A stretch of 64,000 bases of DNA from an uncultured Bacteroides sp. (GTDB lineage Bacteria; Bacteroidota; Bacteroidia; Bacteroidales; Bacteroidaceae), in contig UQVZ01000015.1 of the NCBI GenBank assembly GCA_900544675.1, positions 4,433 through 68,432 of the forward strand. The letters are read 5' to 3'. Below are positions 3,459 to 64,000 of the stretch, one piece after another; the stretch's first letter is position 1; each line of letters starts with the position of its first letter. Made by a program: the position numbers and the translations under genes. The notes under the pieces were generated by a model. That model was not told where the DNA came from, ran no database searches, and was given only the letters and a program-made list of their open reading frames with translations.

Positions 3459-3906
3459 TACCCTTTTACGACTCAAATACGACCCCTCCCCCTCCCTTTT
3501 GAATTACCCGGCACAACGCCCTAAGTTTCAGACTTTAATAGGTAAGAAACATTTTTTTAAAGATACAACTCGTCGGTTGTGCTTTCTCAGATAATTATAT
3601 TACTTTTGCGTCTAGACAAGATAAGGTAATCTTTCAATAAATACTGGGGATTGTATAATTTTGATTGAAATATTGGAAATCGCATTTTGCGACATCCAAT
3701 TCCATTATAATGGGGGCAAGGAAATTACCCTATGCTTTTACTGAAAATGGAGTGGCAATGTTAAGCAGCGTCCTTTAGGTCATTCAAATATTTCAACTAC
3801 TCTCTACCTTTATGTCCATCCAAATATAGAACAAAAGAAACGCTTCATCAGCAGAATGTTCAAATTTTCGGATAAATAAGAATGTCTCTGTAGACAGCTT
3901 ACTTTT

Positions 3907-3994
3907 ATGTCCTCCATACGGAGGACGTACGTCCCACGTATGGAAAACGTATATCCCCCGATTGGAGGACGTACGTTTTCCGATTGGAGGACAT
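3907..3994. repeat. Palindrome / direct-repeat cluster (IR-bounded ~88 bp)
   Basis: atgtcctcc (3907-3915) and ggaggacat (3986-3994) form a 9-bp terminal inverted repeat. The internal perfect palindrome ggacgtacgtcc occurs twice. The direct repeat ccgattggaggac occurs twice, 22 bp apart. Confidence 0.5.
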
Positions 3995-4262
3995 AAAAAT
4001 AACATAGCCTGCAAACAGAATATAATAAAGTAATATATGCTTCTTAATTACCTGTCAATAAAAACAAATACAGAGGTATAGAGTTTCATTCACGTAATAC
4101 ATTATCGCAACACCAACTCTTTACCGGTTGTATGCCGGTCTGTCTTTCGGACGATTATTTTAGGAAAAACGAAAAAAAACAGCGAAAAGTATTGCAGATT
4201 CAAAAAATAGTCCTACCTTTGCAACGCATTTGAGAAACATAGTGCAAGAACATAATCAGAAT

Positions 4263-4336
4263 GGTTCCTTGGATGAGTGGCTTAGTCAGCGGTCTGCAAA
4301 ACCGTGCACGGCGGTTCGAATCCGCCAGGGACCTCA
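4263..4336 (+). tRNA. tRNA-Cys (anticodon GCA)
   Basis: Cloverleaf: acceptor ggttcct/agggacc with one G-U pair, anticodon stem gcggt/accgt, loop cTGCAaa, T-arm ggcgg-TTCGAAT-ccgcc, discriminator U73 (a Cys identity element). CCA is not encoded. Confidence 0.8.
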
Positions 4337-24078: not shown

Positions 24079-24237
24079 GTGAGTTTTTAAGTTGGTGAGT
24101 TTTTAAGTTGGTGAGTTTTCACCACAGATTACACAGATTTATTCTTTAATTAATAGTTAATAATTAAAAAATTAATAACGGAGAGATTCTTCATTCTTCA
24201 TTCTTCATTTCCCCCGTTCTTCATTTTTAATTATATC
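24079..24237. repeat. Composite low-complexity repeat block (gagtttttaagttggt x2; caccacagattacacagattt; cattcttcattcttcatt)
   Basis: Tandem and punning repeats. The last 30 nt are read through as the C-terminal 10 codons of the OMP gene at 24205-24924. Confidence 0.6.
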
Positions 24238-28808: not shown

Positions 28809-28951
28809 AAAAATGAAGAATTAAAAATTAAGAATGAAGAACCTTTTAAATTAAGAATGAAGAATGAAGAATGAAGAACCTTTGAAATGAAGAACTAAGA
28901 ATGAAGAATGAAGAATAGCACACATCCTTATTCTTCATTCTTAATTCTTCA
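28809..28951. repeat. aagaatgaagaa-type tandem / inverted repeat block filling the dapF-dapL intergenic region
   Basis: ttaagaatgaagaatgaagaatgaagaacc... followed by the inverted ttattcttcattcttaattcttcattattcattc. It abuts the dapL start and overlaps the last codons of dapF. Confidence 0.6.
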
Positions 28952-29758
28952 TTATTCATTCTCCTCGATTGTTCCGTCGAATACTTTTACCGCGGGACCT
29001 GTCATGAAAAGGTGGTCGCCTTCGCCCATCCAACGGATGTGAAGGGTGCCTCCGTCCATCACGACGTCCGACTCATTGGGGCAACGGGCGGTGTAAGCGG
29101 CGGCTACGGCGGTAGCACATGCCCCCGTGCCGCAAGCCATCGTAATGCCCGAACCGCGTTCCCATACGCGCATGCGGATTTTTCCCGGAGCCAGCACTTG
29201 GGCAAACTCCACGTTCACACGGTCGGGGAAAAGCGGATGATGCTCCAGCAACAGTCCTACAACAGGCAAATCCACCTTTTCCATATCATCGACAAAAATC
29301 ACCAGGTGCGGATTGCCCATCGATACGGCGATGCCTTCGCGATAGGGAGCGCTTTCGCCCAGACTGACCGGATGAATCTCCGAAGGGATGCCCATATCGA
29401 CCGTCACGGCACCGACTTTTCCGTCTTCCACTTGCAGGCGAAGGGTCTTGACGCCCGAAAGGGTATCGAGGGTGATTTCGGTCTTGTCGGTCAGACCATA
29501 TTCGTACACATACTTCCCGATGCAACGGCTGGCGTTTCCGCACATCTTCGCTTCCGAACCGTCGGCATTGAAGATGCGCATGCTGAAGTCCGCCTTGTCG
29601 GACGAGCCAATCAGCACCAGTCCATCGCTTCCGATGCCTGTATGCGGACGGCTCCACGCAATGGCGCACGCTTCGGGATGCTGTATGGGGTATATCAGGG
29701 TGTTGACGTAAATGTAGTCGTTCCCTGCCCCTTGCATTTTAGTAAATTCTATTTTCAT
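28952..29758 (-). CDS. dapF: Diaminopimelate epimerase
   Basis: [19 protein letters not shown]..., two catalytic Cys ([15 protein letters not shown]). Confidence 0.9.
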
Positions 29759-32864: not shown

Positions 32865-33020
32865 TTTTGTTTAAGTTTTTAAGTTTTTGAGTTCTTTAGT
32901 TTTTAAGTTTGTGAGTTTGTAAGTTCGTGAGTTTCTAAGCTTATCAGTTTTTGAGTGGATAATATATATATTTATACAATAACTCAAAAACTCAAGAACT
33001 TACAAACTTAAAAACTAAAA
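32865..33020. repeat. Imperfect long inverted repeat (agtttttaagtttgtgagtttgtaagtt... / ...aacttacaaacttaaaaact) between gltB and gltD
   Basis: Arms at about 32868-32935 and 32975-33020 flank tggataatatatatatttatacaat. Same word family as 24079-24130 and 601-630. Confidence 0.55.
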
Positions 33021-36000: not shown

Positions 36001-37538
36001 AACATCAACTGAGGCATATCGCTCAACACGGCGAGCGGGGTATCGTTACCCATGGATGCCGTAGGCTCGGTCCCGTTGGTGCACATCGGCGTCAACGTGC
36101 GCTCTACGTCCTCGCGCGTATAGCCGAAGGCACGGAGCTTGCGCTCGAAATCGGGAACGGTGTTCTCCACTTTACGCCCGCTGCGCAAGGTGTTCAGCTC
36201 GATACGGTTGGTGGAAAGCCATTGGCGGTAAGGCTTGGCGGCGGCAAGTTGCTCCTTGATTTCCCCGTCGTAATAGATTTTCCCTTCCTGCGTATCTATC
36301 AGCAGGAGCTTGCCCGGTTGCAAACGTCCTTTTTCCTTGATGGTTTCGGGCTCGAAGCTGATGACTCCCGCTTCGCTCGCCACCACCATCATATCGTTCT
36401 TCGTAATGAGATAACGTGCCGGACGAAGCCCGTTGCGGTCGAGCATACCGCCCGCATAACGCCCGTCGCTGAAGAGAAGGGCGGCAGGTCCGTCCCAGGG
36501 TTCCATCAGGATGGAATGGTATTCATAGAAGGCTTTCAGGTCTTCGCTGATAGGGTTCTTGTCGTTGAACGATTCGGGCACCAGCATCGCCATCGCATGC
36601 GGAAGGCTCAAGCCCGACATCACGAAGAACTCCAGCACATTGTCCAGCGAAGCGCTATCGCTCATGCCCGGCTGGATGATAGGGCGGATATCCTTCACAT
36701 TGCCCAAAGCCGGTGTAGAGAGCACGCTTTCGCGCGCCTCCATCCAGGCACGGTTTCCGCGGATGGTATTGATTTCGCCGTTATGCGCCAGGAAGCGGAA
36801 GGGCTGGGCAAGGCTCCACGTGGGGAACGTATTCGTACTGAAACGCGAATGCACGATGGCAAGGCCGCTCGTGAAATAAGGTTGTGTCAGGTCCAGAAAA
36901 TACTCCCGCAACTGTACCGACGAGAGCATACCTTTATAAACAATGGTCTTGCTGGACAACGACACTATGTAGAAGTCTTTGTGTTGTACGCGCTTTTCTA
37001 TTTTCTTGCGGATAATATATAAGGTGCGCTCCAGGTTCTCCACGTCCGTGGCACCGGTAATGAACACCTGCTTGATGGCAGGTTCGGTCTCCTGCGCGCT
37101 CTTTCCCGGGACGGATGAGTTGACCGGCACGGCACGCAAGTGCATCAGGGTAAGCCCCTCGCGTTCGATTTCCTCAATCATGATGCTCAGAATCCGCGCC
37201 TGTTCCTGCTCGTCTTTGGGCAGGAAGACCAGTCCTGTGCCGTACTTTCCTTTCTCGGGCACCGGGATGCCTTGCAACAAGATAAATTCGTGAGGAATCT
37301 GTACCATAATGCCGGCACCGTCTCCAGTCTTGTTGTCGGCACCTTCCGCTCCTCGATGTTTCATATTCTCCAGCACCTTCAGTGCCGAATCCACCAGTTC
37401 GTGCGACTTGTTGCCATGAATGTCAACAATCATACCCACACCACAAGCATCGTGCTCGTATGCAGCATCATAAAGTCCCGTTTGTTGTCTGTCTGTAGCT
37501 GCGCTGCTTTTCATTCTGATAAAAGTTTCCTCTTTCAT
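33021..37538 (-). CDS. gltB: Glutamate synthase large subunit
   Basis: The N-terminal amidotransferase Cys follows the start (ACGVGMIVD). Length is about 1500 aa with FMN/Fe-S and GXGXG domains. Start set at the internal ATG (MKEETFIRMKSS...). Confidence 0.9.
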   Translation of the reverse strand: MKEETFIRMKSSAATDRQQTGLYDAAYEHDACGVGMIVDIHGNKSHELVDSALKVLENMKHRGAEGADNKTGDGAGIMVQIPHEFILLQGIPVPEKGKYGTGLVFLPKDEQEQARILSIMIEEIEREGLTLMHLRAVPVNSSVPGKSAQETEPAIKQVFITGATDVENLERTLYIIRKKIEKRVQHKDFYIVSLSSKTIVYKGMLSSVQLREYFLDLTQPYFTSGLAIVHSRFSTNTFPTWSLAQPFRFLAHNGEINTIRGNRAWMEARESVLSTPALGNVKDIRPIIQPGMSDSASLDNVLEFFVMSGLSLPHAMAMLVPESFNDKNPISEDLKAFYEYHSILMEPWDGPAALLFSDGRYAGGMLDRNGLRPARYLITKNDMMVVASEAGVISFEPETIKEKGRLQPGKLLLIDTQEGKIYYDGEIKEQLAAAKPYRQWLSTNRIELNTLRSGRKVENTVPDFERKLRAFGYTREDVERTLTPMCTNGTEPTASMGNDTPLAVLSDMPQLMFNYFRQQFAQVTNPAIDPIREELVMSLTEYIGAVGTNILLPSESHCKMVRLPHPILTNTELDILCNIRYKGFNTVKLPTLFEVSRGKAGLREALADLCRKAEQSVDDGVNYIILSDRGIDKEHAAIPSLLAVSAVHHHLISVQKRVQTALIVESGEVREVMHAALLLGYGASAFNPYMAFAVLDSLVKDKYIQMNYETAEKNYIKAICKGLYKVMSKMGISTIRSYRGAKIFESVGLSEELLKAYFGTSVSTIGGAGLQEIAKDYITFHDNGFCPDEVEPLLPHIGQFSYRKDGEKHAWNPETISSLQLATRLGSYAKFKEYTRKVDEKEHPIFLRDFFSFKRNPIPIDQVEPVEEIVKHFVTGAMSFGAISKEAHEALTLAMNKLGTRSNTGEGGEDSSRFHDTFDGISLCSKTKQVASGRFGVTAEYLVNAEEIQIKVAQGAKPGEGGQLPGFKVNEIIARTRHSIPGISLISPPPHHDIYSIEDLAQLIFDLKNVNPKAKISVKLVAESGIGTIAAGVAKAKADLIVISGAEGGTGASPASSMRYAGIPPEIGLSETQQTLVLNGLRGQVRLQTDGQLKTGRDIISMALLGAEEFGFGTAVLIVLGCVMMRKCHANTCPVGVATQNPELRDHFRGKYEYVVNFFHFLAQEVREYLADMGFTRLDDIIGRTDLIEIKPREAGSKASLLDFSHILYQVKNGSALHNVTSQKHDIEHVKDVAMLSAAREALANKKEVSLEYAIANTDRSVGAMLSGAVALKYGEAGLPDQTINVKFKGSAGQSFGAFLTHGISFKLEGEANDYLGKGLSGGHISVQPPVRSDFDAERNTIVGNTLLYGATSGEVYINGRAGERFAVRNSGAIAVVEGVGDHCCEYMTGGRVVVLGETGRNFAAGMSGGVAYVWDKNHDFDYFCNMEMVELSLLEDATARKELHELVRQHYLYTGSKLARTMLDNWNRYVDEFIQVTPIEYKKVLAEEQMRKLQQKIAEVQRDY

Positions 37539-37892
37539 TGGCGTTTGCTTTCTTTTTACACTGTTTAGTTCTTTGTATCTATCTATTTGTCCGCAAAGAT
37601 ACAGATACTGCAAACATTATGTATAGATAACATGTAATTTTATTTCAAAAAATATCGCATCGGGCGCCAACAGCTTACTATCACGCACAAAACAACGCAT
37701 ACAATATGAGAAATTATAAGCAAAACAATCTATTTTAATTACAGAATAAAAGAATAGTGTTTTTATTTTGAGCAAAAAGGAACGGGTCAGGAGCCTCGTC
37801 TTGCTTCCCGAAACCGGCATCGGAAGCGGAAGAATGAAAGCCTTCATCCGGGCAAATTTACCAAGGAAACCGGTCGTACCGATACACTCACC

Positions 37893-38008
37893 CAGTTGTT
37901 TCAGGAGTTTCAGTTAAGTGAAACACTTGTTTCACCTAGGTAAAACACTTGTTTCAGCCTGCTGAAACAGTTGTTTCAACTTTTTAAAACAGGGTGAAAC
38001 TGTTATTT
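37893..38008 (+). repeat. Dispersed ~115-bp element made of tandem GTGAAACA-NN-TGTTTCAC palindromes (copy 1, upstream of rnf)
   Basis: Units gtgaaacacttgtttcac, gtaaaacacttgtttcag and ctgaaacagttgtttcaac are spaced 22-23 bp. An inverted second copy is at 62759-62875 and a partial copy at 45207-45230. Confidence 0.6.
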
Positions 38009-38201
38009 AACGGTTTGGGTTGACTGAATATCTTCTTCCAGATAAGACAGGTTGACTCAAGTTCCGAATTGTCCGCCCCTACCACACCCACCACATCCCG
38101 ACTTCAGCCCAACAGATGATAAAGAACATAATTATAGAATACTTTTGCATTTTTTAGCATATAATTCCTCCGTTTGCGTTACCGGGAATAGAATTTTATC
38201 G

Positions 38202-38209
38202 TATTTTTG
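38202..38209 (+). promoter_or_regulatory. -7 box TAttTTTG for the rseC-rnf operon
   Basis: tatttttg sits 30 nt upstream of the ATG at 38239. Confidence 0.4.
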
Positions 38210-38238
38210 CCCTATATTGTAAAGTACAGTTTGCAAAT

Positions 38239-38658
38239 ATGACAAATAACATAAAACACCTGGGTATTGTGGAAAGCATCAACGGTTCTCACCTGAAAGT
38301 GAAAATCATGCAGACATCGGCGTGTGCCTCCTGCAGCGCACAAGCACATTGTCATGCGTCCGAATCAAAAGAAAAAATCATTGATGTGTACAACCGGCAA
38401 AACCTGCCTTGCCAGGTAGGCGGACAGGTATGGATTGCGGGCACCGTCTCGATGGGTATGAAAGCAGTATGCCTCGCCTTTGTGATTCCTTTCCTTGTCG
38501 TATTCCTGACTCTGGTCATCGCATTGCAAGTGACCGGAAGCGAAGTCACCTCTGCCCTTATCTCCCTCTGTGCCTTGGTTCCTTATTACCTTATTATATA
38601 TATGTGCCGCAAACGGCTAAGCCGCTCGCTCGTCTTTACTTTGGAAAGCGTACTATAA
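38239..38658 (+). CDS. RseC/MucC-family (SoxR-reducing-system-like) membrane protein, first gene of the rnf operon
   Basis: N-terminal Cys-rich segment (SACASCSAQAHCHAS) and two TM helices. Positioned immediately 5' of rnfB. Confidence 0.65.
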   Translation: MTNNIKHLGIVESINGSHLKVKIMQTSACASCSAQAHCHASESKEKIIDVYNRQNLPCQVGGQVWIAGTVSMGMKAVCLAFVIPFLVVFLTLVIALQVTGSEVTSALISLCALVPYYLIIYMCRKRLSRSLVFTLESVL

Positions 38659-51102: not shown

Positions 51103-51290
51103 GTGTTTAAAATAAAATCAAACGCAGAGACGCTGAGACGCAAAGTTTTCTATTTTGAGAAAGCAAAGCACACGAAGATTTTTTCTTATTTGAACACAGA
51201 GGCACAAAGAAATAAATTTGTTAATCTGCGTAATCCATTGAAGAAAAAAATCTGTGTAATCTGTGGTGAAAAGAAAACATCAACTGATTC
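51103..51290. repeat. Dispersed intergenic repeat element B (inverted copy of 63843-63990)
   Basis: Its reverse complement reads ttttcaccacagattacacagatttttttcttcaatggattacgcagattaacaaatttatttctttgtgcctctgtgtt..., nearly identical to 63843-63930. It carries an extra ~60-bp internal segment. Confidence 0.65.
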
Positions 51291-60589: not shown

Positions 60590-60720
60590 AATTTCAGATT
60601 TTAATCAAGAAAGCATGTCAAATTATTTCCAAACACAGAGACACAAAGGCACAGAGTTTTATATGCTTATCTCTGTCAAATTAATTCTCTGTGACTCTGT
60701 GTTTCTGTGTTCAATTCCTT
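60590..60720. repeat. Hairpin-forming cacagag-type repeat between proB and the PepSY gene
   Basis: aaacacagagacacaaaggcacagag pairs with ctctgtgactctgtgtttctgtgtt. Same family as 520-565 and 63900-63925. Confidence 0.55.
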
Positions 60721-61840: not shown

Positions 61841-62167
61841 TCAGCTTGTAATACGTTGTGATTCTTTCCGTTTATAAACTACAACGCCTCGACGGTTTAT
61901 ATGGTCAATCAAGTCTTTATTGCCTAAAGCATGATATAAGGACAAATCAACTTGATAAGGAAGCAGCAAGTCATCTATCGCCAACGATAACCGAATCAGG
62001 TCTTTTCGTGATAAGTCCTTTCCCATCAAAGTTATATCAACGTCAGAAAAAGGCTTGAAGTTACCTTTTGCGCGCGAACCATAAAGGATTGCCTGTTCGA
62101 TACAGCCGTTTGCTGCAAACACGTCAAGCAAACCCTTCCATTCTTTATCTGTCAATCCGTAATGCAT
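61841..62167 (-). CDS. Pol-beta-superfamily nucleotidyltransferase (MNT-type antitoxin-like)
   Basis: GSRAKGNFKPFSDVDITL is the GSx(n)DxD minimal NTase motif. 108 aa. Confidence 0.75.
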   Translation of the reverse strand: MHYGLTDKEWKGLLDVFAANGCIEQAILYGSRAKGNFKPFSDVDITLMGKDLSRKDLIRLSLAIDDLLLPYQVDLSLYHALGNKDLIDHINRRGVVVYKRKESQRITS

Positions 62168-62220
62168 ATATCACAATATTTTATTAGCAAGCCAAGTTTC
62201 ACAAATTACAGAAACATGAC

Positions 62221-62670
62221 TTATAATTCAACCAGTTCCGACATTTTTTCTTTAAAACGGACAAACAACGGATAATACACATGCACAATGGCTTCGTAAA
62301 TTTCCTCTGCCGTTTCGGCATCATAATTATGAGAAGTCAGATTACGGTCGCCAATGGAATCCATCCACCGTTTATCCTCTATCAATCCCATACCGAAAGC
62401 CATCCGCAAAGCGTCACGCGAACCTCTTACTTCCGTATATCCTTGATACTCCGCGTAATCCTTCATCACTTTCCACGCCAATTCATGCGTATATTCAAAA
62501 CGCTGTATCAAGCCCTCTTTCAACAAATAATCGACTTCCTCTTCCTTTCCTTCCTGCCGTGAAACAATCTCCACAGCCTGTTTCAGACGCTCTACAGCTT
62601 TACGGTAATTGTTGAAACGCTGTATCCAACGTATGTCATTGTCTGTTGCTTTATCCATAATTGTCTGCAT
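62221..62670 (-). CDS. HEPN-type nucleotidyltransferase-substrate-binding protein (HI0074 family; HepT-like toxin)
   Basis: RNLTSHNY matches the HEPN Rx4HxY motif. 149 aa, 53 bp upstream of the MNT gene. Confidence 0.75.
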   Translation of the reverse strand: MQTIMDKATDNDIRWIQRFNNYRKAVERLKQAVEIVSRQEGKEEEVDYLLKEGLIQRFEYTHELAWKVMKDYAEYQGYTEVRGSRDALRMAFGMGLIEDKRWMDSIGDRNLTSHNYDAETAEEIYEAIVHVYYPLFVRFKEKMSELVEL

Positions 62671-62758: not shown

Positions 62759-62875
62759 AATAACAGTTTCACCCTATTTCAATATAGTGAAACAAGTGTT
62801 TCACCTATAAGAAACAGTTGTTTCACCTAGCTGAAACACTTGTTTCAACTATAAGAAACTGCCTGAAACTACTGG
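62759..62875 (-). repeat. Dispersed GTGAAACA-NN-TGTTTCAC palindrome-array element (copy 2, inverted relative to copy 1)
   Basis: Its reverse complement aligns with 37893-38008: cagtagtttcagg...gtgaaacaactgtttc...gtgaaacacttgtttcac...agggtgaaactgttatt. Confidence 0.6.
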
Positions 62876-63839: not shown

Positions 63840-63842
63840 TTG

Positions 63843-64000
63843 TTTTCACCACAGATTACACAGATTTTTTTCTTCAATGGATTACGCAGATTAACAAATT
63901 TATTTCTCTGTGCCTCCGTGTCTCTGTGTTCGATTTTATTTGAAACGCAGATTCACGCAGATTATTCTTTTCACCACAGATTACACAGATTAAATAAATT
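63843..64000. repeat. Dispersed intergenic repeat element B (copy 2; runs to the window edge)
   Basis: ttttcaccacagattacacagatttttttcttcaatggattacgcagattaacaaatttatttctctgtgcctccgtgtctctgtgtt..., then a second caccacagattacacagattaaataaatt unit as in 500-520. Confidence 0.65.

Follow-up and report, generated by a model that had tools for sequence, protein, structure and literature searches.

The DNA analysed here (the window) is a stretch of 64 000 nucleotides from an uncultured Bacteroidaceae species, and is identical to the human-gut metagenome contig ERZ919634 k127_80864. The RseC protein it encodes is 68% identical to that of the nearest named relative, a Phocaeicola sp. Within the window a 700-bp gap separates gltB, carried on the minus strand with a coding region that ends at ~37538–37613, from rseC, which starts at 38239 on the plus strand and is followed by rnfBCDGEA. 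The gap contains an array of three GAAACA-NN-TGTTTC palindromes with a 22-bp period (37918–37979), bordered by degenerate end modules. An initial annotation had described this array, its degenerate flanking units (37893–38008) and its neighbouring genes as we find them, and had seen in it the binding sites of a dimeric regulator lying upstream of the rnf operon. Our analysis points to a different role. We think it probable, on the sequence comparisons set out below, that the array is a dispersed, non-autonomous palindromic repeat, resembling the repetitive extragenic palindromes (REPs) and bacterial interspersed mosaic elements (BIMEs) or the BrickBuilt elements, whose half-sites are read by a protein.

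The first unit of the array (37918–37935, no strand assigned to this or the following units) is a perfect 18-bp palindrome, GTGAAACACTTGTTTCAC, with no mismatches. It is followed at 22-bp intervals by unit 2 (37940–37957; GTAAAACACTTGTTTCAG) and unit 3 (37962–37979; CTGAAACAGTTGTTTCAA). There is just one perfect palindrome of this length per copy of the element, the remaining units having two mismatches in their outer bases. The general form of the unit is TGAAACA-NN-TGTTTCA-N6, so that each half-site is able to pair with either neighbour, in one of two registers, GAAACA-NN-TGTTTC or TGTTTCA-N6-TGAAACA; TGTTTCAC-CTAG-GTAAAACA is likewise a dyad. Palindromes of 18 bp (GTGAAACAnnTGTTTCAC) and 20 bp (TGTTTCACCTAGGTAAAACA) are both present in the element. 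To the left lies an end module (37893–37917, plus strand; CAGTTGTTTCAGGAGTTTCAGTTAA) with two degenerate half-sites in the same orientation, TGTTTCA (37897–37903) and AGTTTCA (37906–37912), and to the right a second module (37985–38007, plus strand; TAAAACAGGGTGAAACTGTTATT). The pattern GTGAAACANNTGTTTCAC, allowing up to two mismatches, matches the window at six places (37918, 37940 and 37962; 62787, 62809 and 62831) where 0.01 matches are expected, a count that was reached in none of 100 shuffles. The 14-bp core GAAACANNTGTTTC with at most one mismatch finds the identical six sites (0.35 expected), and Tandem Repeats Finder returns a period of 22 at both locations.

The second group of matches belongs to copy 2 of the element (62759–62875, minus strand), situated between a divergent HEPN (NTase_sub_bind)–MNT gene pair and a gene for a Cof-type HAD hydrolase, and present in all 10 metagenome contigs that cover its locus. 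As the initial annotation had noted, it is inverted: the best alignment of copy 2 with copy 1 is as the reverse complement, forming a 102-nt inverted repeat that is 76% complementary. The ends are asymmetric and the same in both copies (left, CCAGTnGTTTCAGG(n)AGTTTC; right, AGGGTGAAACTGTTATT); the element thus has a polarity, with respect to which copy 2 is inverted. A third copy was found with a subfamily-specific pattern on another contig of the same sample, of equal coverage (L094, 6417–6540), where it lies between the 3′ end of a gene for a coiled-coil protein and the start of a Fur-family gene. The three copies align over 113–120 nt, with nhmmer scores of 117–121 bits and shared ends. The left module recurs in copies 2 (as its reverse complement) and 3, with flanks that diverge leftward of it, and the right module is nearly identical in all three. 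Beyond the right module copies 1 and 3 share a further 51-bp tail, which is absent from copy 2; in copy 1 it occupies 38008–38058 on the plus strand (TAACGGTTTGGGTTGACTG...AGGTTGACTC, with direct repeats of GGTTGACT at 38018 and 38050), in copy 3 ~6541–6592 of L094, and past it the flanks diverge. Since this homology reaches 38058, the full long form, judged by alignment, is ~165 bp, not the ~115 bp first given to the element, and ends there; copy 2 is a short form.

A fourth member was found in a related species at a different locus (L111, 6485–6597; nhmmer E = 4.5e-11), with a recognisable right module. It lies 13 bp after an HTH_34 gene; that species has an 85%-identical Fur protein, and its region upstream of fur has no element. 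The subfamily pattern, run over Joint Genome Institute (JGI) metagenomes, gave only one extra locus. All strains and contigs of the source species carry copies 1 and 2; in a 97%-identical strain (L082) the whole intergenic region around copy 1 is 98% identical, which is uninformative at such a distance. In another strain (L098; compare window 61841–62670) the HEPN gene (154 aa) has no MNT partner and copy 2 is still kept. With two copies in the 64-kb window and one in 8.4 kb fetched for another reason, the density in the source genome suggests roughly one copy per few tens of kilobases, as extrapolated from three copies. Across all copies known to us the number of units ranges from 1 to about 9. 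As far as alignment can tell, the asymmetric ends and the tail show that the copies are paralogous DNA, for such features could not come from convergence on an operator. That the array is a duplicated or mobile module rather than an operator specific to one locus, as first proposed, is therefore borne out by the three source copies and the fourth site in a relative, and by families of the same grammar elsewhere.

Related species differ in which copies are present, and at each site compared the synteny breaks. All three source copies are placed where synteny with relatives is lost, and this fits repeats that accumulate at rearrangement junctions or cause them. In relatives of the Phocaeicola/Bacteroides type the gene order is lepA, a gene for an extracytoplasmic function (ECF) sigma factor, and rseC-rnf, with a gap of 57–155 bp before rseC, and the element is absent from five such rseC-rnf loci. 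In two species that also do not have the sigma gene (L085 and L090) the upstream neighbour is different, and a short, degenerate element is present with the same end modules in the same relative place. These relics are the sole significant matches in 56 kb (E = 1.3e-4 and 3e-3), the right module is recognisable, and the palindromy has been lost. We read this as an old insertion upstream of rseC that would be decaying in these two species, though it could also be weak evidence for a local role.

The last ~95 bp before rseC (38143–38238) align across the related species, and this block includes a –7 box of the Bacteroidetes form TAnnTTTG. Two such boxes lie on the plus strand at the rnf upstream block, outside the element, TACTTTTG at 38140–38147 and TATTTTTG at 38202–38209. 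From the alignment of this block across species, the rnf operon has its own putative conserved promoter downstream of the element. It is found 130–200 bp downstream of the array, and is kept in relatives that have no element. The proposal that the array is an operator for rnf does not sit well with this, nor with the decay of the orthologous relics, and the element most likely contributes little or nothing to the control of rnf. The distance from the element to the nearest –7 box is ~60 bp at the HEPN gene and ~130–200 bp at rnf, the orientation is inconsistent among the copies, and there is no –7 box in the region of copy 3. Nor does each copy point at a downstream gene, as had been suggested, because in copy 3 the right end is turned toward the 3′ end of a gene.

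How general is the array outside the source species? A strict 23-base pattern representing two units at 22 bp was run over a GTDB collection with one genome per species, and gave 73 loci against ~0.02 by chance, by our own estimate from the size of the collection. Parabacteroides gordonii, P. goldsteinii, P. leei and an uncultured Parabacteroides have about 7–11 loci each, while P. faecis, P. segnis and three other Parabacteroides genomes have 1–3. The Bacteroidales metagenome-assembled genome (MAG) W1P18.013 has 21 loci on 16 contigs, ~480 kb in total, with 4–6 direct units and a conserved flank, and in a Bacteroides caecimuris MAG there is a single array, with about 9 units. In Parabacteroides the members are uniform, 62–64 bp in length, with the form TGTTTC-N8-GAAACA-NN-TGTTTC-N8-GAAACA-NN-TGTTTC-N8-GAAACA; their spacers resemble ACCTAGGT, and the CACCTAGGTG context is as in the window. 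They are scattered, the P. gordonii loci being spread over 0.65–3.93 Mb of the scaffold and those of P. goldsteinii likewise scaffold-wide, without clustering at the origin. Where a stop codon faces the element it is a median of 26 bp away, and a facing start codon a median of 128 bp; 14 of 27 facing 3′ ends fall within 30 bp compared with none of 31 facing starts; intrinsic terminators are often abutted. The relatives in W1P18.013 are similar in having many extragenic copies with a bias toward the 3′ ends of genes. None of the 73 loci is near rnf, HEPN–MNT or HAD genes. The initial annotation had held that hundreds of copies without positional bias would mark a plain selfish element; this situation is approached but not strictly reached, at least three copies being known in the source genome, and in the other lineages, with 7–21 loci per genome in several Parabacteroides and one MAG, a positional bias does exist, toward gene 3′ ends.

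In five Parabacteroides species a 64-bp copy lies in frame within a gene for a 660-aa heavy-metal P-type ATPase (L036, 1617–1680; also L013, L054, L055 and L057), encoding about LFPPNETSVSPYRNNCFIRRKQ in a loop ahead of the TVVV.AIDR motif. Alignment of the ATPase to the ZntA and CadA structures reveals no large net insertion at this position. Sets of genes for an ECF sigma factor, a FecR anti-sigma factor, SusC and SusD occur within 8 kb of 17 Parabacteroides loci; at three (L041, L045 and L060) the element is between the sigma and anti-sigma genes, and at L072 it is 90 bp upstream of the sigma gene. In W1P18.013 a larger repeat, which has a conserved flank of ~50 nt (…GGATTTTGCAACGGAAAAGCCCCATAAATAAACGGGGAGTCGGCA; L050, 3880–4140 and L076, 790–1010), encloses the 22-bp arrays. 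The presence of about 21 loci on 16 contigs indicates that these are a high-copy composite element, so far as sequence can indicate it.

Some matches lie outside the Bacteroidales. In two Planctomycetota MAGs (L018, 2776–2811; L058, 2490–2525) two GAAACAnnTGTTTC palindromes with a spacing of 22 bp extend over the start codon of a TetR/CecR-family gene (ATGAAACAGCTGTTTCA = MKQLF). This is likely to be an autoregulatory operator that is separate from the repeat family. The recurrence across phyla was considered as a sign of a universal reader protein and rejected, the Planctomycetota sites being ordinary TetR/CecR operators and a Lachnospiraceae match being a coding repeat. No relative was found in viral contigs, PLSDB plasmids or GenBank phages, and an origin as a plasmid or phage iteron or centromere is thus unsupported. 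Our literature searches gave no description of the motif in Bacteroides or Parabacteroides.

The sequence of the half-sites is well preserved among the three paralogous copies. Half-site columns differ in 9 of 162 pairwise comparisons (5.6%), and other columns in 59 of 175 (34%; Fisher p = 3e-11); the comparison is somewhat circular because the half-site mask was drawn from the consensus, although the ungapped 22-bp register is unambiguous. It is the half-site sequence that is conserved, rather than pairing through compensatory change, and this argues for a sequence-specific protein reading GTTTCA rather than a pure hairpin; such recognition is likely. The proposal of binding by a dimeric regulator stands to this extent, that the spacers drift apart and the half-sites do not; we identified no regulator, and ParB or a transposase would fit no worse than a transcription factor. 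A transposase is an equally possible reader.

There are also signs of hairpins. Folding of the array gives z-scores of –3.3 to –7.2 against shuffled sequences, both strands folding about equally. The outer spacers of a copy, over a set of 39 from Parabacteroides, are complementary to each other at 4.82 of 8 positions, as against 3.82 in shuffles, of which none of 2000 reaches the observed value. Furthermore, in an orthologous pair with near-identical flanks, from P. gordonii (L015, 1391–1454) and P. leei (L017, 902–965), the central 24 bp are inverted, and re-inversion reduces the mismatches from 8 to 2. This suggests the footprint of hairpin-mediated template switching at a quasi-palindrome, and hairpins probably do form in the DNA of the element. 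In the Parabacteroides copies the 2-nt centres of two units are direct repeats and are not mirrored, which fits growth by tandem duplication of 22 bp.

The repeat is non-coding and modular: a left module is followed by 22-bp units in varying number, then by a right module and, in some copies, a tail. In the scheme that we envisage, new copies would be the work of an enzyme acting in trans, or of recombination directed to the half-sites or to the hairpins that these form when the DNA is single-stranded. Slippage by 22 bp would cause the arrays to grow and shrink, while extrusion of hairpins would lead to template switching. The strictness of the half-sites would be maintained by the reader protein, for which a transposase (e.g. 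a Bacteroidetes-specific RAYT subclass), the chromosomal ParB or a transcription factor are candidates.

We believe that the element represents a previously undescribed repeat family of gut Bacteroidales, as far as sequence comparison can establish, and the kinds nearest to it are REP/BIME and BrickBuilt. The REPs and BIMEs of Proteobacteria are mobilized by REP-associated tyrosine transposases (RAYT/TnpA-REP). Like the element they are short, imperfect palindromes in alternating orientation that form hairpins, with conserved parts next to variable ones (PMC3733652). They are extragenic, numbering tens to hundreds and lying mainly a short way downstream of genes, now and then in frame inside them (PMC3733652), a distribution to which that of the Parabacteroides and W1P18.013 relatives is similar. 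The element differs in that its palindromes carry neither a GT[AG]G nor a CGTC tag at their foot, and in its AT-rich units of fixed 22-bp period; GTAG is found only in the left module of copies 2 and 3 (AGTAGTTTCA), is replaced by GTTG in copy 1, and the units have no tag. The Bacteroidetes-specific RAYT subclass 2.6 is associated with ‘atypical’ REPs that lack GTAG (PMC6006769). None of the REP sequences in the supplement to the paper on the HuH enzymes matches the element.

BrickBuilt, a Porphyromonas gingivalis MITE (miniature inverted-repeat transposable element), belongs to the same order of bacteria and has the same architecture as our element, that is a leader, n tandem units of 22–23 nt and a tail (PMC4596501), in an intergenic, multicopy setting. 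In both, the unit number varies and copies without leader or tail occur; BrickBuilt is always intergenic, in about 19 copies (PMC4596501). By contrast, the BrickBuilt units are direct repeats and not palindromes, and no sequence relation to the element has been shown. BrickBuilt also has terminal inverted repeats of the IS5 type (GAGACC...) and some target duplications, whereas the element has neither. Its ends are only the inverted half-sites AGTTTCA and TGAAACT. In an Rfam 15 scan of the whole window at the gathering score only a tRNA was found, and when the region 37600–38300 was searched at E up to 10 the best matches to the element had 18–20 bits, far below the cut-offs. The BOX elements of Streptococcus pneumoniae and elements of the Correia and ERIC type share a modular A-Bn-C organization with a variable number of central units, stable hairpins, intergenic locations close to the ends of genes or to promoters, and perhaps incidental effects on expression. 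They differ in being of unrelated sequence and phylum, in their longer units (~45 bp for boxB) and in having no periodic dyad half-sites. Rickettsia palindromic elements (RPEs) offer a parallel to the P-type ATPase copy in Parabacteroides, being palindromic repeats that are tolerated in frame within genes, but they are 100–150 bp long, are not built of 22-bp units and belong to another lineage, and the copies in the window are intergenic. RPE-4 and RPE-6 have been equated with CGTC REPs (PMC3733652).

A number of observations weigh against a dispersed repeat. No open reading frame (ORF) with a RAYT/HuH-Y1 motif is present in the window or in the 104 fetched loci (~0.6 Mb of flanks), and the fetched DNA contains no terminal inverted repeats matching an insertion sequence (IS), no GAGACC terminus, and no IS or transposase. 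No direct repeat is common to the flanks of copies 1, 2 and 3 as a target-site duplication would be. Since neither a transposase, IS-type ends nor a target duplication was found, the mechanism of spread given above is one that we infer. There is no clean pair of filled and empty orthologous sites, each comparison meeting a break in synteny, and in two look-ups of empty sites synteny was lost at the element, so that no exact insertion boundary or target duplication could be defined. Moreover, at least three copies are known in the source organism and none adjoins a stop codon; all three are in intergenic regions that hold at least one gene start. An element or relic is found upstream of rseC in three species with differing upstream neighbours, and this may reflect function rather than ancestry. 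Lastly, the family pattern fixed the inner half-sites, and the conservation across lineages is therefore partly a matter of ascertainment.

A rival possibility is that the array is an operator, with a dimeric transcription factor (Crp/Fnr-, TetR- or Fur-like) binding cooperatively to 14–18-bp palindromes on one face of the helix to regulate rnf, HEPN–MNT and the fur-like gene, the module having spread to make a regulon. The 22-bp spacing corresponds to two helical turns, the half-sites are strictly conserved, the source copies are all in regions with gene starts, and rseC has the element or its relic upstream in three species. The palindromes at the TetR/CecR start codons in Planctomycetota suggest that the motif is workable as a site for a helix-turn-helix (HTH) dimer, and the core AACAnnTGTT is also present in the PrfA box of a Crp/Fnr-family protein. 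Yet an operator has no need of homologous flanks and a tail, and would not be expected with inconsistent distances to the –7 boxes and no box near copy 3, where the element turns its right end to the 3′ side of a gene. The Parabacteroides members are scattered genome-wide, just past stop codons or inside an ORF, and the rnf promoter is kept without the element in relatives while the relics decay. We consider the operator improbable for these reasons. A structured RNA is a further possibility, with the array transcribed as a small RNA, a leader, an mRNA-stabilizing 3′ hairpin or a terminator. Long hairpins are predicted, with the z-scores given above, and the Parabacteroides members, 2–26 bp past stop codons and ahead of or beside intrinsic terminators, are probably in transcribed 3′ untranslated regions. 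However, there is no Rfam match, no promoter box inside the element and no T-run after it, the strands fold about equally, and what is conserved is the half-site sequence, not pairing with compensatory change. Both copies in the window, being placed upstream of mapped –7 boxes in divergent promoter regions, are probably untranscribed. An RNA function is accordingly very unlikely.

The half-sites have a further resemblance that bears on the identity of their reader. The canonical parS sequence TGTTTCACGTGAAACA, a consensus that served to locate clusters of parS near the origin in Bacteroides caecimuris (PMC10197239), has TGTTTCAC and GTGAAACA as its two arms, so that the half-site TGTTTCA(C) matches one of them exactly. 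Unit 2, taken with the right half of unit 1, gives TGTTTCAC-CTAG-GTAAAACA, in which the parS half-sites are in their native order with a 4-bp insert. Reportedly, as Jalal et al. found in 2020, two bases distinguish parS from the Noc site, and these are included in the GTTTCA that is always conserved here. The arrays might then be landing pads for chromosomal ParB, clusters of half-parS sites bound outside the origin region as in Pseudomonas aeruginosa, and serving as nucleoid platforms or as a selfish element that exploits ParB. In P. aeruginosa ParB occupies hundreds of isolated half-parS heptamers in vivo (PMC10419367). There are 17 GTTTCAC heptamers in the 64-kb window, of which 7 fall within the 233 bp of the two elements, with 3–4 perfect heptamers per copy, and the same half-site recurs across Bacteroidales families with unrelated spacers and flanks, as would fit a very conserved reader. 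Against this, no contiguous 16-bp parS with up to two mismatches is found in the window or any locus; the best match in the window has three mismatches, at 485–500, outside the element. The arms in the element are never abutted: either their order is swapped, with 2 bp between them, or 4 extra bp keep them apart. C occupies position 8 in no more than about half of the half-sites. The copies are spread out instead of lying near the origin, the identity across lineages was partly imposed by the search pattern, and an ordinary TetR-type operator, that of Planctomycetota, can show the same sequence. No ParB box II motif was found in a scan of all fetched DNA, and there is thus no local par locus. 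Taking both sides together we regard ParB landing pads as unlikely, with perhaps an outside chance. It is similarly unlikely that Bacteroidales half-parS arrays of fixed 22-bp period recruit ParB away from the origin in the specific sense of a selfish element that takes as its handle the specificity of ParB, the best conserved among bacterial DNA-binding specificities, or of domesticated landing pads shaping the nucleoid and local transcription, for example upstream of rnf. The idea overlaps with that of a dispersed repeat, for ParB is a possible identity of its reader protein.

If the array is indeed a dispersed palindromic repeat, as we think probable, then it should not carry an annotation as a regulatory site for rnf. 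It would be a probable source of assembly breaks and rearrangements, given the synteny breaks at all three source copies, and a possible marker for strain typing. The family would also provide an example of a palindromic repeat tolerated in frame inside a gene. To our knowledge the organization of Bacteroidales chromosomes is poorly understood. A Hi-C study of OMM12 remarked that the SMC complexes behind arm alignment in Bacteroides had yet to be identified. The strictness of the half-sites, 6–7 bases of which are a parS arm, poses the testable question of whether ParB or another conserved HTH protein is bound to these scattered repeats.

A few other features of the rnf neighbourhood were examined. 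The order lepA, ECF sigma, rseC-rnf that is common in the Bacteroidaceae is seen in L088, L092 and L105–L107, and the sigma gene has been lost from that position in the source lineage (37539–38238), while in L082 (15799–17580) lepA is inverted and lies downstream of rnfA. From the loss of the one gene and the inversion of the other, the comparison indicates that the neighbourhood is one that has been rearranged repeatedly. An ORF of 76 aa at 37617–37847 looks non-coding. A lone sequence resembling a –7 box, TAAATTTG, is present on the minus strand at 37853–37860, 33 bp to the left of the element; it has no –33 TTTG, and the RNA downstream has no significant fold, so its function is doubtful. 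A small RNA or leader in the flanks was rejected, the folds of 37745–37850 (minus strand), 37760–37895 and 38005–38125 being no better than those of shuffled sequences. We also dropped the possibility of an ECF-sigma promoter with GAAAC as its –35 box, because, when the unit sequence is inspected, no CGT-type –10 box lies at a suitable spacing.

The window contains a number of other repeats. Arrays of 8-bp units (AACTTAAA / TTTAAGTT) at 568–630, 24079–24119 and 32870–33020 form long inverted repeats and are interrelated; the last of these directly follows the gltB stop codon (33021), and looks like a terminator hairpin built from repeats. A second hairpin-forming family has 7-bp units (AATGAAG / ATTCTTC) at 24186–24232 and 28811–28962, with a higher-order repeat of 37 bp at 28811–28921, and a third, of the TCTCTGTG / CACAGAGA type, is found at 498–552, 60631–60711 and 63880–63992. 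At 3899–4002, ~260 bp upstream of a tRNA gene (4263–4334), there is a 36-nt inverted repeat with GGACGTACGTCC cores and a gap of 32 nt. The core resembles the ARACGTWCGT repeats found at invertible promoters in Bacteroides, but the two arms lie much too close together for an invertible segment. Finally, 51194–51275 and 63840–63921 form an 82-nt inverted repeat that is 96% complementary, one arm of which begins right after the stop codon of the HAD gene.

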